Of a stretch of 64,000 bases of DNA, positions 4,452 to 59,618 are shown piece by piece. Where the stretch lies: the NCBI GenBank assembly GCA_041940305.1, contig JBGTSJ010000007.1, forward strand, positions 1 through 64,000, written 5' to 3'. Numbering within the stretch: position 1 is the first letter of the stretch; each line of letters starts with the position of its first letter. The stretch comes from Planctomycetaceae bacterium (GTDB taxonomy: Bacteria > Planctomycetota > Planctomycetia > Planctomycetales > Planctomycetaceae). Made by a program: the position numbers and the translations under genes. The notes below the pieces were generated by a model. It worked only from the letters and a program-made list of their open reading frames with translations, made no database searches and was not told where the DNA came from.

Positions 4452-5447
4452 TCAAACCGTTGTGGCGTCCAGCGACGTCTGCATGGCTTTGAGGACGCTC
4501 GACTGCGCGCTCGCCAGCGGTCCGGGCAAAGTTGCTCCGGCCGCCTGCTTGTGGCCCCCTCCGCCGAACTGCTCGGCGATGCGGGCCACGTTCACCGGGC
4601 CGCGGCTGCGGAAGCTGGCCTTGATCTGACCCGTCCGCTGCTCCACCAGGATGAACGCGCATTCCACCCCGTCGACGCGCAGACAATCGTTGACGAGGTC
4701 TTCCGTGTCCGTAGGATGAGCTCCGGTCTCACCGTAATCCTTCATCAGTACGAACGTGTGTCCTAGCCGTCCGCCAAACTCAAACTGAATCCGGCTCAAC
4801 ACCAGGGAATGCAGCTTCAGCCGGGCGGCCGACGAGCGCTCGTACAACTCTCGATATAGTACGTTTGGCCGCGCACCACCGTCAATCAGCCGCGCTGCAG
4901 TCCGCAGTGTGCGGCTGTCAGTATTCGAGAACCGGAACCAGCCGGTGTCCGTTGCGATGGCGCAGAACAGGGCGTCAGCCGCGTGTCCCGTCGGCTGAAC
5001 TCCGAGGAACTCCGCCAGCTCCGTAATCAGCACACCGGTCGCCGAGGCGGAGACGTCCTTGAATTCGGTGGCTCCCAGGTCGTCGCCGCTCACGTGGTGA
5101 TCGATCACCACCTTCCGGGCGGCGGTCTGCTTGAGGACCTGATCGACATCGGGAAGCTGCTGCCAGGCGCTGGTGTCCACCACGACGTGCACGTCCACAT
5201 CCAGCGCCTCTTCGACGCTGATGCCGTCCTTCAGCTTGCGGACGCGCCCTTCCGGATCAAGAAACTCGATATGCTTCGCGGCTGCCGACGGATTGGCGAT
5301 CCGTACCGACTTGCCGAGCGATTCGAGTACCGACAGCAGTCCCAGTTCGGAGCCGATCGCATCCGCATCGGGCCGCACATGGCTGGAGATCAGGAACCGC
5401 TCTCCGGCGTCGATGATCTTGCGGAGCGGCGTCCAGTCGAGCGGCAT
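4452..5447 (-). CDS. nrnA: DHH/DHHA1 phosphoesterase, NrnA-like oligoribonuclease / pAp phosphatase
   Basis: DHH motifs are present: SHVRPDADAIGS, VVDTS and VIDHHVSGDD. The DHHA1 GGGH motif (EQFGGGGHKQAAGA) is also present. The ATG at 5447 is preferred; GTG 5471 is the alternative. Confidence 0.82.
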   Translation of the reverse strand: MPLDWTPLRKIIDAGERFLISSHVRPDADAIGSELGLLSVLESLGKSVRIANPSAAAKHIEFLDPEGRVRKLKDGISVEEALDVDVHVVVDTSAWQQLPDVDQVLKQTAARKVVIDHHVSGDDLGATEFKDVSASATGVLITELAEFLGVQPTGHAADALFCAIATDTGWFRFSNTDSRTLRTAARLIDGGARPNVLYRELYERSSAARLKLHSLVLSRIQFEFGGRLGHTFVLMKDYGETGAHPTDTEDLVNDCLRVDGVECAFILVEQRTGQIKASFRSRGPVNVARIAEQFGGGGHKQAAGATLPGPLASAQSSVLKAMQTSLDATTV

Positions 5448-7723: not shown

Positions 7724-7744
7724 AACCCATCACTGAAAAAGAGA

Positions 7745-7825
7745 GGCCACGGATGACGCGGATTGGACGGATTCACGCAGATCAGATCCGCGTAAATCCG
7801 TCCAATCCGCGTCATCTGCGGCCCC
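7745..7825. repeat. Family-1 palindromic element, copy A, 81 bp
   Basis: GGCCACGGATGACGCGGATTGGACGGATT-CACGCAGATCAGATCCGCGTA-AATCCGTCCAATCCGCGTCATCTGCGGCCCC, a near-perfect hairpin about 30 bp long between yqiJ-like and flotillin. Confidence 0.9.
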
Positions 7826-7879
7826 TTTGAAACGAATCAGCCAATCCCATCTCACGAGTTCTGACTCGGGCTTGAAACC

Positions 7880-9964
7880 ATGGAATACATCGTCGGCGGT
7901 ATCATCGGTCTGTTCATCCTCTTCGGCCTGCTGATCCTGATCTCGCGGTTCTACCGCAAGGTCGGCCCGGAAGAGGCGCTGATCATTACCGGCGTCGGCG
8001 GACTGCGGGTCGCCACCGGGCGCGGGACGATCGTGATTCCGATCGCTCACCGCGCGGAGCAGATGGACCTGTCGGTCAAGCGGATCGAGATCGCCCGCCG
8101 CGGCGAGTCGGGACTGATCTGCCGCGACAACATCCGGGCCGATATCGAGGTCGCGTTCTTCGTCCGCGTGAACAACACGCGCGAGGACATTCTGCAGGTG
8201 GCTCAGTCACTGGGCTGCCGTCGGGCGAGCGAGCACCAGGCACTGGTCGAACTGTTCGACGCCAAGTTCTCCGAGGCCCTGAAGACCGTCGGCAAGCACT
8301 TCGATTTCGTCGACCTCTACACTGAGCGGGACAAGTTCAAGGACGAGATTCTCAAGCACATCGGGACAGACCTCAACGGCTACATTCTCGACGACTGCGC
8401 GATCGACTACCTCGAGCAGACGCCAGTCGAGAAGCTGAGCGCGAACAACATCCTCGACGCCGAGGGTATCAAGAAGATCACCGAGTTGACGGCCCGAGAG
8501 CACGTCCGCTCGAACGAGATCACGCGCGAAAAAGAGAAGACGATCAAGAAGCAGGACGTCGAGGCGCAGGAAGCGATCCTGGAGCTGGAGAAGCAGCGCG
8601 TCGAGGCGGTCGAGAAGCAGAAGCGGGAGATCGCGGAGATCACGGCCCGCCAGCACGCCGAGGCGGCCAAGGTGCAGCAGGAAGAGCGGCTCAAGTCGGA
8701 ACGGGCCCGCATCACGACCGAGGAAGAGGTGGAGGTCGCGACGCAGAACAAGGACCGCCAGGTCATTGTTGCACAGCGAAACAAGGAACGCACCGACGCC
8801 GTCGAGCGCGAACGCGTGGAGAAGGACCGGCAGCTCGAAGTGACCGAGCGCGAGCGGATCGTCGGCCTCGCCCAGATCGACAAGGAAAAGGCGATCGAAG
8901 TCGAGAAGCGGAACATCCAGGAGGTGATCCGCGAACGGGTGACCGTCGAACGGACGGTGGTCGAAGAACAGCAGAAGATCAAGGACACCGAGGAGTTCGC
9001 CACGGCGGACCGCGAGAAGCAGGTCAAGATCACGCTCGCCGAGATGGCGGCCCAGGAGTCGTTGGTCAAAGAGATCAAGGCAGCCGAGGCGGCCAAGCAG
9101 TCGGCCGAATTCGTGGCTCAGCAGATGGTGATCGAAGCCGAGGCGGAGCGGCAGGCGGCCGAGAAGCAGACTGCGGCCAAGAAAATGCTGGCCGAGGCTG
9201 TGCAGGCCGAGACCGCCGCCACCGGACTCGCCGAAGCGCAGGTGATCCTCGCAAAGGCCGATGCCACCGAGAAGCAGGGAACGGCCGAAGCGGTCGTCAT
9301 CCAGAAGAAGCTGGTTGCCGAAGCCGAAGGTCATAAGGCGAAGGCGGACGCCGTCCAGAAGCTGGGCCTGGCGGAAGCCGACGTCATGCACCAGAAGTTC
9401 TCCGCCGAAGCCCGCGGCATCGAGGAGAAGGCCGAAGCGATGAAGCTGTTCGACGGCGTGGGCCGCGAGCACGAAGAGTTCAAGCTGCGGCTGAACAAGG
9501 ACAAGGACATCGAGATTGCCGCGATCTCCGCGCAGGAAGAGATCGCCAAGAGCCAGGCGGACATCGTCGGCAAGGCGCTGCAGACGGCCCGCATCGACAT
9601 CGTCGGCGGCGAGACGGAGTTCTTCGACAAGATTGTCGACTCGGTCAAAGCCGGCAAGGCGGTCGACCGCTGGGTCTACAACAGCGACGTGTTGAGCGAC
9701 GTGAAGAACACGTTCTTCAACGGCGAGTCGAACGGCGACTTCCGCTCGAGCCTCAGAAAGTTCACGGACCACTTCGGGATGAGCTTCGAGGACGTGAAAG
9801 ACATGACCGTCACGGCCCTGCTGGCGAAGTTCATGCTGCAGGCCGACGACGACGCGACGACCAGCGCACTCAAACGACTGCAGCGCGTGGTGCAGTCAGC
9901 GGGAGTCAGCGACAAGAAGGTGGCGTCCCTGGGAATCGGGGCGGCGGAGCAGTCGCATGCTTGA
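7880..9964 (+). CDS. Flotillin / SPFH (band-7) family protein, YqiK-like
   Basis: 694 aa. N-terminal TM anchor MEYIVGGIIGLFILFGLLILISRFYRKVGPEEALIITG. An SPFH domain and a long E/A/K/Q-rich coiled-coil flotillin repeat region follow. Confidence 0.9.
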   Translation: MEYIVGGIIGLFILFGLLILISRFYRKVGPEEALIITGVGGLRVATGRGTIVIPIAHRAEQMDLSVKRIEIARRGESGLICRDNIRADIEVAFFVRVNNTREDILQVAQSLGCRRASEHQALVELFDAKFSEALKTVGKHFDFVDLYTERDKFKDEILKHIGTDLNGYILDDCAIDYLEQTPVEKLSANNILDAEGIKKITELTAREHVRSNEITREKEKTIKKQDVEAQEAILELEKQRVEAVEKQKREIAEITARQHAEAAKVQQEERLKSERARITTEEEVEVATQNKDRQVIVAQRNKERTDAVERERVEKDRQLEVTERERIVGLAQIDKEKAIEVEKRNIQEVIRERVTVERTVVEEQQKIKDTEEFATADREKQVKITLAEMAAQESLVKEIKAAEAAKQSAEFVAQQMVIEAEAERQAAEKQTAAKKMLAEAVQAETAATGLAEAQVILAKADATEKQGTAEAVVIQKKLVAEAEGHKAKADAVQKLGLAEADVMHQKFSAEARGIEEKAEAMKLFDGVGREHEEFKLRLNKDKDIEIAAISAQEEIAKSQADIVGKALQTARIDIVGGETEFFDKIVDSVKAGKAVDRWVYNSDVLSDVKNTFFNGESNGDFRSSLRKFTDHFGMSFEDVKDMTVTALLAKFMLQADDDATTSALKRLQRVVQSAGVSDKKVASLGIGAAEQSHA

Positions 9965-22353: not shown

Positions 22354-22411
22354 TCCCTCCAGAAACCCGGCCTCTTCGAGAATCCAGGTTTCCGGAGATG
22401 TCGGCATTCAC

Positions 22412-22440
22412 TCGACCGCTCCCTGCCGGTCGCGGCTCTT
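22412..22440. repeat. Family-3 half-copy, intergenic
   Basis: CGACCGCTCCCTGCCGGTCGCGGCTC matches the reverse complement of the family-3 left arm (CGGGCCGCTCCCTTCCGGTCGCGGCTC). Confidence 0.55.
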
Positions 22441-34863: not shown

Positions 34864-35094
34864 GGGGGTACGCAGATGACGCAGATGCAGAGGATTGACG
34901 CAGATGCTGCGCAGGTCTTGAAGGACGGCAGAAACACTAATAGCCGCTAATCTACGCTAATTCCTGCATGAGTGTCGATTAGCGGTGATTAGCGTTCCCC
35001 TCTTCGCTTTTTTTTCCATCCCGTCGTTCGCTGTCCGCCGTCACCTCTTGAAATCCGCGTCAATCCGCCCCATCCGCGTCATCCGCGGCCCCCC
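34864..35094. repeat. Family-1 palindromic element, copy E, 231 bp, with nested internal inverted repeats
   Basis: Arms GGGGGTACGCAGATGACGCAGATGCAGAGGATTGACGCAGATGC and GAAATCCGCGTCAATCCGCCCCATCCGCGTCATCCGCGGCCCCCC. The core carries CCGCTAATC...GATTAGCGG inverted repeats. It overlaps the last 11 codons of the PVC dehydrogenase gene. Confidence 0.9.
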
Positions 35095-38000
35095 TTCCCT
35101 CCACCCCCAGCGACTCGAGGTACGCCAACAGGTCGCGGAACTCCTGCACCGTCATCCGCTCCCACAGTTTCTCCGGCATCACCGACACCCGCTGCGGCAC
35201 CCGCTCCTCGATCTCATACGTCGAGATCTCCGTCGTCCGCCCCTCGCTGTCCCCCAGCACTGTCCGCCCCTCGTTCTCATGCACGATCATCCCCGTATGC
35301 ACCACGCCGTCCGTGGTCAGCATGTTCCACGTCGTAAACTGCGGCGACACGTCCTTGCTGGGCTCCAGGATCGAATCGATCAGCTTCTCCCGCGTAAAGC
35401 TCCGCCCCACATAAGATAAATCCGGCCCCACCCGCCCCCCGCGCCCTTCAACGGTGTGGCACTTGTAACAACCGGGCCCGTTGGGGTGATAGAACACGCG
35501 GCGACCGGAGGCGACTGGATCAATGCCGGTACTCGAGCGAAGCTCCTCGTAATCGGAGGTTACCGGCAACAGCTCGGCCTTCCAGACTTCGATACGCTGA
35601 GGACGTTTGCTCCATGCCTCCTCATACATGTTGAAGCGAGCGTCATCCGCTGGCGCTGCGAGATAAAGCTGCTCCAGCCACTCCTGCAGGCTCCATGGAT
35701 TGCCGGAGTAGGCGTTCAACGAGCCTGCCACTTCGTCGCGAATTCGCTCATCAGATCGCGAGAGCGGCCGGAGTGAGCGAATCGCCGCCATTGCGAAATC
35801 GAAGTCCGAGCGCAGGAACTCCGTCAGCGCGGCCGTGGCTGGCTGATTGCCGCCGCCTTGAGCCGCGATCTTGGATAAGCCGAGCATGGCTTCTTCCACC
35901 AGAGCTGAGTATCGCGAGCGGGCCAGGCTCAGTTCAGCAAACTCGGCTTCGCTCAGTTCATCAATGGCTGCGTCGCTGAGACCGGATTCGTCGAACGGAT
36001 CCGGCTGCTTCGCTACCTCAATCAATAGCCCCTCCACTTCTTTGAGCGGCGACTCGCACAGCGACCGTACCGTCTCCAGCCGCAGATCAAAGTCGTCGCT
36101 CGCCAGCAACGCTTTCCACACGTCGATCGTGAGTTGCGGATCATCCGCCTCCACCAGCCGCAGCGCCTGCACCTTCACCGCATCCGGCGTCTCGGCATTC
36201 GTCAGCAGCGGCACAACATATTTCCCGATCGGCGCCTGCTCAAACTCCCGCGGACTCCGCCCATCCAGCATGTCCAGCGCCGCGATCGTCGCCAGAAACA
36301 ACTCCGTCGTCATCGGCTCGCTGGTGAGCACCCCCTCCACCTGCGGCCGCAATTCGGAAAGCCCCTCTTCCGCCGCCCACTGGACCGCGATGCGTCGGAC
36401 CTCGGGATCAGTATTAGCAATTGCGATCCGCAGAAACTCGTCGTCCTCTGCAAACGCGCGCCGCACCGCCAGCACCAAGACACATCGTGATGCAGACGAG
36501 ATCTCTCCAAGTCGCCGCCTCACAATTTCATCGCCGAACGTACGAGGTTCTCGATTCGCAATCGCCATTCGAAAGTAGATCCTGAGTTCCTCCTTATCCC
36601 GGGCGAGCGAGTCCACGAGGGCCGATGCCAGATTCTGAGGAATCTGCTCACGCTGTAGCTGATGAATCCTGAGAGTGCGCGCCTGCTCAAGTGGATGGCC
36701 GCCGTTGGAAAAGAACGCGGCGACGCTTCGCGATTCCCATGATTCGTACTTATCTGGCAACGTAGCGTTCCTCGGCCAGAGGAGCATGTAGTTCCAGTCG
36801 CGGTAATCCCGCACAGGACATTGAGGCACGCGACCGATGACTCTCATCATAGCGGTGCGCACTTCGTCCAGGGGCCAATGGATCACATTGGACTCTGTGC
36901 CGGTAAACCCGTAGTCAAATTCCTCAATTGGAACTTGAACGGCCTGCCAGGCAGCTTCGACTCGAGCGCGTGCGCTTAACGAACCATCATTCAGGATGTC
37001 GCTCAGCTTCTCTCGACCGTCGGCAGTTCCTCGCAATTGTTTCGCCGCGAGGCGTCGCATCGTCAACTGCCGTGAATTGAGCATTTTCGCAAGTGTTCCA
37101 ACTTCCAGTTCCGCGGATCCTCCGTCGCCACCGGAATCTTCCTCAGGCCGGGTCGGCGGCGGCTTCCCGCTAAACGGCGGATCGACGGCGCTGATCCGCC
37201 ACACCCGCCCATGCCCGTGCAGGTTGTAGTCCCGCTTCACCCAGTCGGTGCAATACAGGCTGCCGTCCGGAGCAAGCGCCAGTCCCACCGGTCGGAAATC
37301 CTCACCCCCCACGACCAGCGGCTCCGCAATCGACTCGAACGACGCACCCCGCGGCTGCAGCCGGAACCGGTCGATCCGGTGATCCCCCCAACTCGTCACC
37401 AGCAGGTTGCCCAGATACTCCTCCGGAAACGCATCGTGCTCATACGCCACAATCCCGCTCGGAGCTTCCCCCGTCCCTGCCACCATCGGCAGCGTCCCCG
37501 GGATCTCCCCGTTCCAGGCGGTAAACGGATGCTGCCCCTTGCGGCCGTTGCGGAACTTGTACCCGTAGTCCCCCCCTTCGATGACATGCAGCAACCGGCA
37601 CGGCGGCCTGCTGTCCGGATCGTTATCAACCGTGAACAACCGCCCGAACGCATCCACGCACGAAGCATGCGGATTCCAGAACCCGGTCGCCCAGTGGGAG
37701 AGCTGCGTCCCATCCGGCCGCATGCGGTAGATGTTGCCCCCCTCGCCACCGCCGGTGAGGGCCAATGAGCCGCGACCGGAAGGGAGCGGCCCGTCGGTCG
37801 CACCGGCGTCGTCGTCAATTTCTAGGCCGCTTCCCGCCGGGCGCGGCTCTTTGAGCGACTCTCGACCAACAAGCGTGTAGTCCTCGCCCAGATTCTCCCC
37901 GAACCCGAAGTACATCCACCCCAGCGCATCAAACGCAAACCCCGCCAGCCCGTTATGCGGATAGTTCCCCTTCGTCTCCAGCCGCGCCAGCACCGTCTGC

Positions 38001-38548
38001 CGATCGCACACATCATCCCCGTCCAGGTCCTCCAGCAGCAGAATCTCCCGCCGCGTCGCCAGAAACACCTGCAGCGGGTGCTGAGAGCCGCGACCGGCAG
38101 GGAGCGGTTCGGCGGTGGGATCATCGTCCATCTCCGGGCCGCTTCCCGCCGCGCGCGGCTCCTTCCCATCTCCATCGACCATCGTCTCTCGACCATCGAC
38201 CCTCACCGCGTCCATCCACACTGGCCGCACCGCCACGCTCATCGCATGCGTGAACCCGTCCGTGAATACCCGCACGTCATCCGCTCGCCCGTCCCCGTCG
38301 GTGTCCGCCATCACCAGCAGCCGGTCGCTCGGATGCCCGTCATATCCCTCCGGCCGGAAGTGCGTATTGCTCTCAATGGCCCACACGCGCCCCCGCGCAT
38401 CCACATCCATCCCCGTCGGCGTCCGAATCTGAGGCTGCTCCGCAAACAGCTCGATCCGAATCCGCGCATCCACCGATCGCGGCCCTTCCTCTGCCGAGCT
38501 GACCGAGCACGCACACAACACCAGTCCGACGACGCAAAGTCTGAGCAT
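35060..38548 (-). CDS. PVC-type membrane-bound dehydrogenase domain plus HEAT repeats plus C-terminal CxxCH haem-binding domain protein (TIGR02604/TIGR02603-like)
   Basis: Signal peptide MLRLCVVGLVLCACSVSSA. An N-terminal beta-propeller dehydrogenase-like region, HEAT-like repeats and a C-terminal CYKCH haem-c motif. The last 10 aa (GAADDADGAD*) are encoded inside palindromic repeat E. Confidence 0.85.
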   Translation of the reverse strand: MLRLCVVGLVLCACSVSSAEEGPRSVDARIRIELFAEQPQIRTPTGMDVDARGRVWAIESNTHFRPEGYDGHPSDRLLVMADTDGDGRADDVRVFTDGFTHAMSVAVRPVWMDAVRVDGRETMVDGDGKEPRAAGSGPEMDDDPTAEPLPAGRGSQHPLQVFLATRREILLLEDLDGDDVCDRQTVLARLETKGNYPHNGLAGFAFDALGWMYFGFGENLGEDYTLVGRESLKEPRPAGSGLEIDDDAGATDGPLPSGRGSLALTGGGEGGNIYRMRPDGTQLSHWATGFWNPHASCVDAFGRLFTVDNDPDSRPPCRLLHVIEGGDYGYKFRNGRKGQHPFTAWNGEIPGTLPMVAGTGEAPSGIVAYEHDAFPEEYLGNLLVTSWGDHRIDRFRLQPRGASFESIAEPLVVGGEDFRPVGLALAPDGSLYCTDWVKRDYNLHGHGRVWRISAVDPPFSGKPPPTRPEEDSGGDGGSAELEVGTLAKMLNSRQLTMRRLAAKQLRGTADGREKLSDILNDGSLSARARVEAAWQAVQVPIEEFDYGFTGTESNVIHWPLDEVRTAMMRVIGRVPQCPVRDYRDWNYMLLWPRNATLPDKYESWESRSVAAFFSNGGHPLEQARTLRIHQLQREQIPQNLASALVDSLARDKEELRIYFRMAIANREPRTFGDEIVRRRLGEISSASRCVLVLAVRRAFAEDDEFLRIAIANTDPEVRRIAVQWAAEEGLSELRPQVEGVLTSEPMTTELFLATIAALDMLDGRSPREFEQAPIGKYVVPLLTNAETPDAVKVQALRLVEADDPQLTIDVWKALLASDDFDLRLETVRSLCESPLKEVEGLLIEVAKQPDPFDESGLSDAAIDELSEAEFAELSLARSRYSALVEEAMLGLSKIAAQGGGNQPATAALTEFLRSDFDFAMAAIRSLRPLSRSDERIRDEVAGSLNAYSGNPWSLQEWLEQLYLAAPADDARFNMYEEAWSKRPQRIEVWKAELLPVTSDYEELRSSTGIDPVASGRRVFYHPNGPGCYKCHTVEGRGGRVGPDLSYVGRSFTREKLIDSILEPSKDVSPQFTTWNMLTTDGVVHTGMIVHENEGRTVLGDSEGRTTEISTYEIEERVPQRVSVMPEKLWERMTVQEFRDLLAYLESLGVEGRGAADDADGAD
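37767..37849. repeat. Family-3 palindromic element, copy 1, in-frame inside the PVC dehydrogenase gene
   Basis: GAGCCGCGACCGGAAGGGAGCGGCCCG-(31 bp)-GGCCGCTTCCCGCCGGGCGCGGCTC. It encodes [28 protein letters not shown] on the minus strand. Confidence 0.85.
38084..38162. repeat. Family-3 palindromic element, copy 2, in-frame inside the PVC dehydrogenase gene
   Basis: GAGCCGCGACCGGCAGGGAGCGGTTCGGCGG-(22 bp)-CCGGGCCGCTTCCCGCCGCGCGCGGCTCC. It encodes [30 protein letters not shown] and lies 317 bp from copy 1 in the same orientation. Confidence 0.85.
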
Positions 38549-49752: not shown

Positions 49753-51666
49753 TTGCGGTCCGGCCGACGGGACCCTATGACGACCGCGCTCTGGCAACTG
49801 ACGGAGGTTACTCTCCGGGGACGGGACCGTCCCCGACTGGACGGGATCTCTGTCGAGATTCCGCGCGGCGTCTGCGCCGTGATGGGACACTCCGGCGCCG
49901 GCAAGACGTCGCTGCTCAATCTGCTGGTAGGGTTTGAGCGGGCGGATGCCGGGAGAATCGTCCGCGTGAACGGGAACGGCGGGGGGACGGAGAGAGGGGG
50001 AGATGGAGAGAACGATTCGAAGTCTCCCCCTCTCTCCATCGCCCCGTCTCTCTCGCCTCCCTCACTCGCCGTCTACTGGGTGCCGGCTGATGACGGGCTG
50101 TGGCCGCATCTGACTGTGCGACGGCATCTCGCGGCGGTGACCGAAGATGAAATTCGGATTGCGAACCTGCTGCGCGATTTCGATCTGGGTGAACTCGCCG
50201 CTGCGCGGCCGGCGACGCTGTCCGAAGGAGAGCGGTCGCGGCTCTCGGTCGCGCGGGCGCTGGCGACGGGAGCACGCGTGCTGGTGATGGACGAGCCGCT
50301 GGTGCACGTGGATCCGATGAGGATGGGCAAGTACTGGGACGCGGTACGGCAGCACTGCGGGAAGAGCGGCACCTCGCTGGTGTTTGCGTCGCATCATCCA
50401 GAAACGGTGCTGCGCGAGGCGGAGCGAGTGATCTGTCTCGATCGTGGACGTATCGCCTGGCAGGGGGCCGTCCGCGAACTGTATGAGCAGCCGCCCACGC
50501 CGGAACTGGCGATGTTCCTCGGTCCGGTCAACTGGCTGGAGGCGGGGGAGGCCGCGGAGTGGCTGCAGCAGGCACGCCCGGGCCCGCTGGCGTTACGGCC
50601 GGAGCGGCTGCGGATCGAAGCGGTCGGGGAGAGCCCGATCGTCGTCGAGGAGACGCGGTTCAGCGGGGCGTATGCCGAGGTGGATCTCAGGAACGAGCGG
50701 ACGGGCAGTCGGCGACGGATGGTGCATCGTCCGGTCGCCGGAGCCTTGCGACGCGGGATGCGTGTGGCACTCGGCGCGACGCTGGGGCTGTTGCTGGCCG
50801 TCAGCGCGGGCTGCACCGTGCAGAGCGCCGAAGCGAAGCTGCCGGTGAAGCCGGTGCGGGTCGAGTCGCTGCCGGTGGAGGACGGGTTCCTGCCGGCGCC
50901 GCGGTCGATGGACATCGGACCGGACGGGCAGCTGTACGTGCTGGACGACGCCGGCCGCGTCATCATCTATGCGGCGGACGGATCGCTCGTGCGGACATGG
51001 TGGATGCCGGAGTACTCGGTCGGCCGCCCGGAGGGGATCGAAGTCCTGCAGGACGGGCGGCTGGCGATCGCCGATACCCATTACCACCGCGTGCTCATCT
51101 GCGACCAGGAGGGGACAGTACTGCAGATGTGGGGTGAAGAGGGGGAGGAGCCGGGGCAGTTCATCTTCCCGTGCGACGTGGCACAGGACCCTGAGGGGAA
51201 CCTGTACGTCTCCGAGTACGGCGGAAACGACCGCGTGCAAAAGTTCACGATCGAGGGGGAGTTCCTGCTGGAGTTCGGCGAACCCGGGACCGGGCCGGGG
51301 CAGTTCCAGCGGGCCAGCGGACTCGACTGGCATGACGGCACGGTCTACGTCGCGGACGCGATCAATAACCGCGTGCAGGCGTTCTCGGCTGAGGGGAAGC
51401 GGCAGCCGTGGGGCGGGGAGCAGCCGCCGGAACTCGATTATCCGTATGATCTGCGGATCCTTCCCAATGAGAGGATGCTGGTCGTCGAATACAAGTCGGG
51501 ACGGGTGACACTGCTGACGCTGGATGGCACAGTGCTGGGCCGCTACGGCAGTACGGGCCGCGGCGAGGGAGAATTCTGGACGCCGTGGGGGCTGGCCGCG
51601 ACCGAGGAGGGACGGCTGGTTGTCGCGGATACGGGGAATCGCAGGATCGTGGAGCTCGCCCTGTGA
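49753..51666 (+). CDS. ABC transporter ATP-binding protein (FbpC-like, with a TOBE-like C-domain) read in-frame into an NHL-repeat beta-propeller lipoprotein-like domain
   Basis: Walker A GHSGAGKTSLLNLL. Signature LSEGERSRLSVARAL. Walker B VLVMDEP. At about aa 336 an internal lipoprotein signal MRVALGATLGLLLAVSAGC is followed by NHL/YD-like repeats (YVSEYGGNDRVQKF, VYVADAINNRVQAF, LVVADTGNRRIVEL). There is no stop between the two parts. Confidence 0.75.
   Translation: MRSGRRDPMTTALWQLTEVTLRGRDRPRLDGISVEIPRGVCAVMGHSGAGKTSLLNLLVGFERADAGRIVRVNGNGGGTERGGDGENDSKSPPLSIAPSLSPPSLAVYWVPADDGLWPHLTVRRHLAAVTEDEIRIANLLRDFDLGELAAARPATLSEGERSRLSVARALATGARVLVMDEPLVHVDPMRMGKYWDAVRQHCGKSGTSLVFASHHPETVLREAERVICLDRGRIAWQGAVRELYEQPPTPELAMFLGPVNWLEAGEAAEWLQQARPGPLALRPERLRIEAVGESPIVVEETRFSGAYAEVDLRNERTGSRRRMVHRPVAGALRRGMRVALGATLGLLLAVSAGCTVQSAEAKLPVKPVRVESLPVEDGFLPAPRSMDIGPDGQLYVLDDAGRVIIYAADGSLVRTWWMPEYSVGRPEGIEVLQDGRLAIADTHYHRVLICDQEGTVLQMWGEEGEEPGQFIFPCDVAQDPEGNLYVSEYGGNDRVQKFTIEGEFLLEFGEPGTGPGQFQRASGLDWHDGTVYVADAINNRVQAFSAEGKRQPWGGEQPPELDYPYDLRILPNERMLVVEYKSGRVTLLTLDGTVLGRYGSTGRGEGEFWTPWGLAATEEGRLVVADTGNRRIVELAL
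49988..50068. repeat. Family-2-related palindrome P3, in-frame inside the ABC ATPase domain
   Basis: GGAGAGAGGGGGAGA-(18 bp)-TCTCCCCCTCTCTCC, a perfect 15-bp stem, plus a CT-rich tail. It encodes an atypical insertion GGGTERGGDGENDSKSPPLSIAPSLSPPS between the Walker A strand and the Q-loop. Confidence 0.75.
50758..51666 (+). CDS. Alternative model: NHL-repeat lipoprotein translated separately from the internal ATG 50758
   Basis: The lipobox LLLAVSAGC lies directly after this ATG. Five or six NHL-type repeats follow. Confidence 0.45.
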   Translation: MRVALGATLGLLLAVSAGCTVQSAEAKLPVKPVRVESLPVEDGFLPAPRSMDIGPDGQLYVLDDAGRVIIYAADGSLVRTWWMPEYSVGRPEGIEVLQDGRLAIADTHYHRVLICDQEGTVLQMWGEEGEEPGQFIFPCDVAQDPEGNLYVSEYGGNDRVQKFTIEGEFLLEFGEPGTGPGQFQRASGLDWHDGTVYVADAINNRVQAFSAEGKRQPWGGEQPPELDYPYDLRILPNERMLVVEYKSGRVTLLTLDGTVLGRYGSTGRGEGEFWTPWGLAATEEGRLVVADTGNRRIVELAL

Positions 51667-59426: not shown

Positions 59427-59446
59427 GGCGTAGGTCAGGGAAACAA

Positions 59447-59586
59447 GGCCGCGGATGACGCGGATCCGGCTGGTCTTCGCGGAGAACAAGAACGTCATGG
59501 ACCAGCGGTAATCGGCCGGCCACAAATCTCACCCCTGTCTGGATTCTGATCCGCGGAAATCCGCCTGATCCGCGTCATCCGCGGCC
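59447..59586. repeat. Family-1 palindromic element, copy H, 140 bp
   Basis: GGCCGCGGATGACGCGGATCCGGCTGGTCTTCGCGGAGAAC...GATTCTGATCCGCGGAAATCCGCCTGATCCGCGTCATCCGCGGCC. It lies between the batA-like stop and the next gene. Confidence 0.9.
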
Positions 59587-59618
59587 TCCTTTCACGTCGT
59601 TCGCAATCACCCCTTCCT

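Follow-up and report, generated by a model that had tools for sequence, protein, structure and literature searches.

REPIN-RAYT systems consist of doublets of repetitive extragenic palindromic (REP) units, termed REPINs, that are mobilized by REP-associated tyrosine transposases (RAYT or RayT) (Bertels & Rainey 2011, PMC3116915; PMC3337134), and such pairs have been described as being passed on vertically and as specific to their lineages (bioRxiv 10.1101/2021.07.10.451892). REPs also occur within genes in several species, where more than half of them are dimers or groups encoding 20-30 amino acids (aa), and some open reading frames (ORFs) of Opitutus terrae and Rickettsia conorii carry two REP inserts (Di Nocera et al. 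2013, PMC3733652). The classical case of palindromic in-frame insertion is that of the Rickettsia palindromic elements (RPEs; Ogata et al. 2000, reviewed in PMC10969869), and in Acidobacteria, TIRtrons/TIRYT elements have been described that carry terminal repeats with a GGGGWSAS motif (Di Nocera et al. 2013, PMC3733652). Here, we examined two palindromes within a dehydrogenase gene of a Planctomycetaceae bacterium (assembly GCA_041940305.1), which lie in the first 64 kb of contig JBGTSJ010000007.1. This 64-kb stretch is the window referred to throughout, and our view of the source genome is that window alone. We consider it probable that both palindromes are REPINs belonging to a REP family associated with RayT, and that they were inserted in-frame at two surface beta-turns of the encoded enzyme, where they are tolerated.

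The original prediction of two imperfect palindromes of about 80 bp in the same orientation was borne out, with starts 318 nt apart (Table 1), and the minus-strand ORF that carries them encodes the two near-duplicate in-frame peptides exactly as they had been quoted. Read on the minus strand, the site-2 palindrome encodes a 28-residue peptide in-frame, giving a net insertion of 30 aa at a 'GSDGT' beta-turn, and the site-1 palindrome encodes, also in-frame, a 26-30-residue peptide in an 'xDGx' beta-turn before VFLATR. Each palindrome folded on either strand into one long hairpin of -52 to -60 kcal/mol, with z-scores between -4.0 and -5.1 (-4.0 and -4.95 for the site-2 copy, -4.1 and -5.1 for the site-1 copy), and 0-1 of 200 shuffles folded as well. 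The arm motif GAGCCGCGMNCGGNAGGGAGCGG was matched five times in the window against 0.04 matches expected, a number that none of 100 dinucleotide shuffles reached. Chance symmetry in GC-rich coding sequence, which had been named as a possible refutation, thus does not account for the hairpins or for the number of arms.

Table 1. Positions in the window of the REP-family elements, their host gene and an adjacent palindrome remnant.
Feature	Coordinates	Strand	Details
REPIN copy, site 2	37767-37849 (83 nt)	+	arm A 37767-37789, spacer 37 nt, arm B 37827-37849
REPIN copy, site 1	38085-38161 (77 nt)	+	arm A 38085-38107, spacer 31 nt, arm B 38139-38161
REP singlet (lone arm A)	22416-22438	-	23/23 match, no partner within 260 nt
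Host gene, PVC-type heme-binding CxxCH protein, 1162 aa	35060-38548	-	TIGR02604, TIGR02603, DUF7133
Older palindrome remnant beside site-1 REPIN (probable)	38162-38210	-	encodes VDGRETMVDGDG; 14-nt tandem repeat 38175-38202

Two of the five arms belong to each palindrome, and the fifth is a lone arm in the intergenic DNA that separates two divergent genes, encoding a GFO/IDH/MocA oxidoreductase and anthranilate synthase I, respectively. At this place (22412-22440), a half-copy of the arm had been predicted; the arm is indeed there and intergenic, but it is complete, as in a normal REP singlet, rather than half. No further diverged arms stood out from background when the window was searched at up to 5 mismatches. 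The oxidoreductase ORF has its first ATG at 22407, 9 nt downstream of the lone arm's end, and the AGGGAG of this arm, about 11 nt upstream of the putative start codon, could play a Shine-Dalgarno-like role. An Rfam scan of the window gave no match at the gathering threshold, and a scan of five loci gave only sub-threshold matches to generic microRNA-precursor hairpins.

We scanned 185,579 species genomes, among whose tiles the source genome itself is not included, with the degenerate 23-mer GAGCCGCGACCGG(A/C)AGGGAGCGG, and it turned up in at least 114 genome tiles, whether alone, in inverted doublets or in tandem clusters; by our own rough estimate, some 10 matches would be due to chance. Among the matches listed, 72 tiles belonged, by record title, to Acidobacteriota (mostly Bryobacterales/Solibacteraceae), 36 to Planctomycetota and 4 to Chloroflexota, with 2 singletons. 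These matches also clustered by genome, with at least 15 tiles from the 9.1-Mb chromosome OZ252029.1, at least 14 from the JBJXGR01 assembly, at least 8 from a Frigoriglobus metagenome-assembled genome and at least 6 from Planctomycetota B31T1B8. Together with the number of arms in the window, the genome search showed that the arm is a real repeat family.

The arms of this family come in two types, arm A being GAGCCGCGACCGG(A/C)AGGGAGCGG (type A, GAGCCGCGACCGGNAGGGAGCGG) and arm B being GAGCCGCGC(C/G)CGGCGGGAAGCGG (type B, GAGCCGCGCGCGGNAGCAAGCGG). A single 23-nt arm folds as CCGC-GA-CC[GGAA]GG-GA-GCGG at -5.4 kcal/mol (DNA parameters), a weak stem of 6 base pairs with a 2x2 internal loop, and it is a short imperfect palindrome within the 20-40 nt typical of a REP unit. 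The inverted doublets that characterize REPINs are represented by the window copies (83 and 77 nt) and by 56 pairs in other genomes, which span 55-226 nt with variable interiors and modes of 84, 75, 67 and 152 nt. Lone arms are in the majority, and the further arrangements are opposite-orientation dimers and head-to-tail arrays with a period of 30-34 or 60 nt. We found arrays with periods of 30, 34 and 60 nt at L080 7023-7385, L006 56-160 and L003 7568-7824, and one frame of the 30-nt array in L080 would read (EPRPEGSGPS)n. Five loci of Acidobacteriota SMAG_U4449 (L016, L018, L077, L097 and L111) carry a 152-nt variant with the same arms and a conserved 106-nt interior, which looks like a subfamily that has expanded specifically in this genome.

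No target-site duplications were seen next to the window copies or next to 14 intact pairs elsewhere, as expected for IS200/IS605-like single-strand transposition. We found neither a GTAG nor a CGTC tag on either strand of the arms, which start with NGAG-CCGC and end with GCGG, and because the arms lack both tags, the family is separate from the GTAG/CGTC REP superfamilies. A full-text literature search for the arm sequence returned no paper. With no paper, no GTAG/CGTC tag and no Rfam family to its name, this REP-RAYT family is apparently undescribed.

The enzyme link came from a Bryobacterales chromosome (OZ252029.1, tile 1120001-1128000, here L039), in which two family palindromes bracket a 544-nt gene (4604-5147). 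With one frameshift near position 4850 corrected, this gene encodes a Y1/HUH protein of 180 aa with the motifs HVRSNHVHVVV and AIRYVLEGQG; the frameshift is either a long-read assembly error or the sign of a recently inactivated copy. The protein scored 24.8 bits against Pfam Y1_Tnp (PF01797; cutoff 23), its best NCBIfam match was REP_Tyr_transpos at a score below the cutoff, and many of its 672 database homologues have been named 'REP element-mobilizing transposase RayT' by the Joint Genome Institute (JGI). A full-length 180-aa homologue at 81% identity confirmed the reconstruction. The same chromosome encodes at least one RayT paralogue (P0216, 52% identity).

We fetched four further RayT loci as DNA (L184, L185, L186/187 and L188/189; 54-81% identity to the L039 protein), and in 5/5 loci examined, L039 included, the RayT gene is flanked on both sides by arms that lie 8-130 nt from the gene ends. 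All five come from Acidobacteriota or metagenomes. In addition, L052 contains the remnant of a RayT C-terminus at a distance of 135 nt from a lone arm. The REPINs flanking RayT in L039, L184 and L185 are A/B heterodimers, as are both window copies and the copy in the closest homologue of the window gene (P0040, described below); L186 has B-type arms only, single A arms flank RayT in L188/189, and the A/A type is found in many dispersed copies. Synonymous adaptation was considered for the deviations A9C and G18A in the coding-strand arm and was rejected, given that the same arm-B type flanks RayT genes. The original prediction of an independent repeat family in the window stands, with the refinement that the family is not genome-specific: it is a REP/REPIN family with a cognate RayT that is found in several phyla.

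The host protein comprises a signal peptide, a six-bladed propeller like that of soluble glucose dehydrogenase (sGDH), a HEAT-like middle region and a C-terminal cytochrome c domain. It scored 270 bits against TIGR02604 (N-terminal; cutoff 122.2) and 99.5 bits against TIGR02603 (C-terminal heme-binding; cutoff 68.15), the two models that together identify a Planctomycetes-Verrucomicrobia-Chlamydiae (PVC)-type heme-binding CxxCH protein, and DUF7133 was also matched. An AlphaFold model of residues 1-499 yielded a beta-propeller with a predicted local distance difference test score (pLDDT) of 81.8 and a predicted template modelling score (pTM) of 0.84, and the top Foldseek matches of this propeller were pyrroloquinoline quinone (PQQ) glucose/aldose dehydrogenases (7cdy, 1cq1 and 2g8s). 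The gene is not pseudogene-like, since all 35 invariant columns of a 114-sequence alignment are retained in the protein. In the model, the site-1 insert lies between strands E104-107 and E159-164 (pLDDT 47-68 for residues 108-158), and the site-2 insert lies between strands E221-228 and E264-268 (pLDDT 46-61 for residues 229-263). Placement between beta-strands at a pLDDT below 50-60 agrees with the loop position that had been raised for both inserts, which are predicted to be disordered surface loops.

We then compared the two sites across 113 homologues. The stretch of site 2 that runs from GEDY to GGEGGNIYR comprises 24-26 residues in 108/113 homologues, forming a tight hairpin (...IGSDGTTLSGGGEGG), compared with 55 residues in the window protein, 53 in P0040 and 31-38 in the remaining close relatives. 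A metagenome scan added 35 more loci, of which 32 have 25 residues at this site and three have 36, 37 and 54. At site 1, the turn is a 20-residue 'xDGxVYVATR' in about 75 distant homologues and carries variable expansions of 24-72 residues in the closest 35 or so, and the site-1 peptide of the window was found in 0/113. Homologues that lack the inserts thus exist for both sites, and the proposed in-frame insertion of repeats into the dehydrogenase gene is supported, with the refinement that the site-2 insert is present in P0040 as well.

P0040 is the closest homologue and comes from an independent JGI metagenome contig; the two genes are 52% identical over 786 codons. It bears a 78-nt palindrome of the same type as that of site 2, whose codon position and orientation it also matches. 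Because this independent contig has the insert at the same site, the site-2 insert is not an assembly artefact, and the insertion is probably older than the divergence of the two lineages. A search of 5.8 billion proteins with an alignment of the concatenated inserts gave 160 word candidates, none at E<=10, and is uninformative, as it did not recover P0040 itself. The sole phmmer match of the 30-aa insert among 1.84 billion representatives (P0241) was discarded as the translation of an unrelated tandem repeat.

Copies within genes are rare for the family, at roughly 5-8%. Since stop-free spanning ORFs are a poor coding test in GC-rich genomes (background median 451 codons), we used Pfam checks and a heuristic based on GC content at third codon positions (GC3) instead. 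By the conservative GC3-based call, copies lie within genes in 3/90 cases in Acidobacteriota and in 3/32 in Planctomycetota, two of the latter being those of the window. Pfam domains were found on both sides of an 84-nt arm pair that splits a GT1 glycosyltransferase gene (L107), of a copy within a NACHT-TPR protein (L113) and of a lone arm within a molybdopterin oxidoreductase (L104). By direct reading of the sequence, the arms are stop-free in all six frames, and an insertion is therefore read through if its length is a multiple of three and its spacer is open.

Taken together, we propose that both copies would have arrived by RayT-mediated single-strand transposition, or one of them by this route and the other by conversion from the first, and that they would have survived because stop-free insertions of 3n length are tolerated at surface turns. 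The outcome would be loops of 28-30 residues, rich in Gly, Pro and Asp, along with an mRNA hairpin of -50 to -60 kcal/mol, and the site-2 copy would be older than the split from the P0040 lineage.

Several observations weigh against this proposal. The arms carry neither the GTAG nor the CGTC tag of described REP superfamilies, and in the 64 kb seen of the source genome, only three family loci are visible. Searches of the window and of the 36 Planctomycetota tiles listed gave no RayT homologue, and the cognate enzyme is therefore shown only in Acidobacteriota. RayTs are typically single-copy, and for this reason, their absence from the window and from these tiles is not informative. The metagenome scan gave no relative above 66% identity and hence no empty-site allele; close relatives likewise supply no such allele, the nearest insert-free homologues being at most about 72% identical, and every member of the closest subclade has some expansion at site 2. 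The arms are also fully kept at synonymous sites relative to P0040, which would not be foreseen from simple neutral decay of an old dead copy. Finally, the transposition mechanism is one that we infer.

Whether the gene was entered twice bears on how much mobility should be read into it. We regard it as a possibility, albeit the less likely one, that a single transposition took place and that the second copy arose by ectopic gene conversion or by duplication within the gene, in which case 'inserted twice' would overstate the mobility of the element. Only 318 nt separate the two copies, whose arms form the same A/B heterodimer and differ once per arm, and whose spacers are related as well (a DDD core, and 80-84% identity over 44-nt blocks); moreover, with in-gene copies as infrequent as they are in this family, two independent insertions into one gene are a priori unlikely. 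However, outside the element no similarity is seen between the flanks of the two copies, one spacer is 37 nt long and the other 31 nt, and because the copies of a REPIN family are normally near-identical, their similarity does not discriminate between one event and two.

Comparison of the window gene with P0040 revealed that, at identical residues, third-codon positions are identical at 14/14 sites within the arms, compared with 199/376 for the gene as a whole (Fisher p = 1.7e-4) and 75/108 for the flanks nearby (p = 0.009), while the spacer is identical at 14/30. This comparison is that of one orthologous pair. Such arm conservation could stem from gene conversion by other copies, from maintenance linked to RayT, from selection acting on the hairpin or from recurrent insertion.

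Palindromes unrelated to the REP family also occupy the same two turns in homologous dehydrogenase genes of other Planctomycetaceae-like lineages, with z-scores of -4 to -9. At site 1, these include perfect 29-nt arms (CTTCGGAGCGGGGGGCGTAAGCCCCCTGA) with a GGGGGCGTAAGCCCCC sub-hairpin in P0010 (L117; z -9.1), a palindrome in P0037 (L118; z -4.0), GAGAG-type arms in P0008 (L116; z -5.5), a palindrome in L123 whose encoded peptide reads GTTGATGGTCGAGGG...CCCTCGACCATCAAC (z -7.9), and palindromes in L130-L136 (z -5 to -6). At site 2, L138 has its own GAGAGCC/GGCTCTC palindrome, which encodes VESRE...STLDS. In the window itself, the site-1 REPIN abuts the segment that encodes VDGRETMVDGDG (Table 1), which judging from its sequence is probably the left half of an older, unrelated palindrome of the L123/L138 type, and this abutment suggests nesting or replacement. 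Site 1 is a hypervariable turn that probably already bore older palindrome remains. The recurrence at the same turns could reflect tolerance alone, or the targeting of pre-existing hairpins. The outer flank of the site-2 REPIN (37753-37767) and part of the site-1 remnant (38194-38208) form a 15-nt inverted repeat with 87% complementarity, which is probably due to chance.

The kept arms, together with the unrelated palindromes at the same turns in other lineages, are what could be expected if the hairpins or their encoded peptides had been co-opted by the host and kept by selection, whether as an mRNA structure that modulates translation or export of the secreted propeller, as a RayT-binding site, or as an acidic surface loop. 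We consider such co-option improbable: a single orthologous pair was compared, and the conservation is one of primary sequence rather than of pairing, which better fits gene conversion or RayT recognition. In addition, decayed or shortened inserts without a palindrome occur in close relatives (P0001, P0008 at site 2, L151 and P0039), and most homologues function without any insert.

That the palindromes are instead classical MITEs (miniature transposable elements with inverted repeats), i.e., deletion derivatives of an insertion sequence with a DDE transposase whose terminal inverted repeats are the arms, is very improbable, for while the inverted repeats with variable interiors and the conserved interior of the 152-nt variant in one Acidobacteriota genome would suit it, target-site duplications were absent from every copy checked, no arm-bounded element of 0.7-3 kb with a DDE transposase was found (arm-bounded stretches of 300-6000 nt proved to be only neighbouring independent elements), lone arms and 30-nt head-to-tail arrays would be unexpected, and the only arm-bounded gene is that of the Y1/HUH RayT. 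A candidate transposase between arms in L008 was rejected, as it is a Uma2 endonuclease.

Beyond the tolerated REPINs that we favor, a more far-reaching reading is that the intragenic arms are actively maintained (by RayT re-templating or gene conversion, or by hairpin selection), that several palindrome families recurrently target or replace one another at the same turns as loop-diversifying cassettes of PVC-type dehydrogenases, and that the REP-RayT pair has crossed phyla. We think this combination rather unlikely and put it forward as speculation; if true, the crossing of phyla would contradict the picture of REPIN-RAYT systems as strictly vertical and lineage-specific.

We also noted further palindromes elsewhere in the window. 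A purine-rich one at 49970-50072, with arms GGAGAGAGGGGGAGATGGAGAGA / TCTCTCCATC...CTCTCTC, lies in-frame inside an ABC_tran ATPase domain (about aa 72-106 of the stop-free frame 49753-51663, with the ABC_tran match at aa 29-183) and resembles the GAGAG-type palindrome at site 1 of P0008. Palindromes at 7742-7826 and 59440-59593 share an arm type (CCGCGGATGACGCGGATCC) and represent a third REP-like family; the former lies at the very end of ORF 7733-8206, and the latter appears to be intergenic, since no stop-free frame spans it. Finally, 64-127 nt downstream of the stop codon of the dehydrogenase gene lies an AT-richer inverted repeat (34933-34996; AACACTAATAGCCGCTAATCTACGCTAAT / ATGAGTGTCGATTAGCGGTGATTAGCGTT), which may be either a terminator or a further repeat.

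That REP dimers are tolerated in-frame within genes was already known, and how such inserts arise is unchanged by the present case. What is added is, first, a concrete REP-RayT family to which a hitherto anonymous palindrome of a planctomycete is now assigned and, second, a 23-nt unit common to three phyla, which offers a testable case for the horizontal spread of REPIN-RAYT systems that are thought to be vertical. Third, at least four different palindrome families have colonized the same pair of beta-turns in a single enzyme family, and this recolonization, combined with the conservation of the arms at synonymous sites, makes the dehydrogenase family a natural system in which to tell tolerated from maintained intragenic REPINs.

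In comparison with the systems described to date, the family agrees with REPIN-RAYT systems in having a short imperfect palindrome as its unit, inverted doublets that fold as one long hairpin, no target-site duplication and, as seen in other genomes, singlets and clusters, a mostly extragenic distribution and a Y1/HUH RayT gene flanked by the units. It differs from them in that its unit has a 5' GAG rather than GTAG, in that its doublets near RayT and in the dehydrogenase gene are A/B heterodimers, in that its cognate RayT is known from other genomes and not from the source genome, and in that one and the same 23-mer is common to Acidobacteriota, Planctomycetota and Chloroflexota, which fits poorly with lineage-specific, vertical inheritance. 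TIRtrons/TIRYT likewise consist of an acidobacterial Y1 transposase gene with inverted repeats on its flanks, which double as a dispersed repeat family, but going by their published description, they have a GGGGWSAS motif that is absent from the arms of the window family. The likeness to RPEs is functional only, both being palindromic selfish repeats that lie in-frame in functional protein genes and are compatible with the fold; RPEs are set apart by their description as elements of about 100-150 bp that are Rickettsia-restricted and AT-rich, encode a conserved peptide and have no associated transposase. As with the intragenic GTAG/CGTC REPs (PMC3733652), the window copies are in-frame REP dimers that encode 20-30 aa, sometimes two per ORF, in a protein that is otherwise intact, and the host belongs to the PVC superphylum, as in the Opitutus terrae example; unlike those REPs, they belong to a tag-free family, and they reside in a periplasmic dehydrogenase rather than in the DNA-repair genes emphasized in that study.

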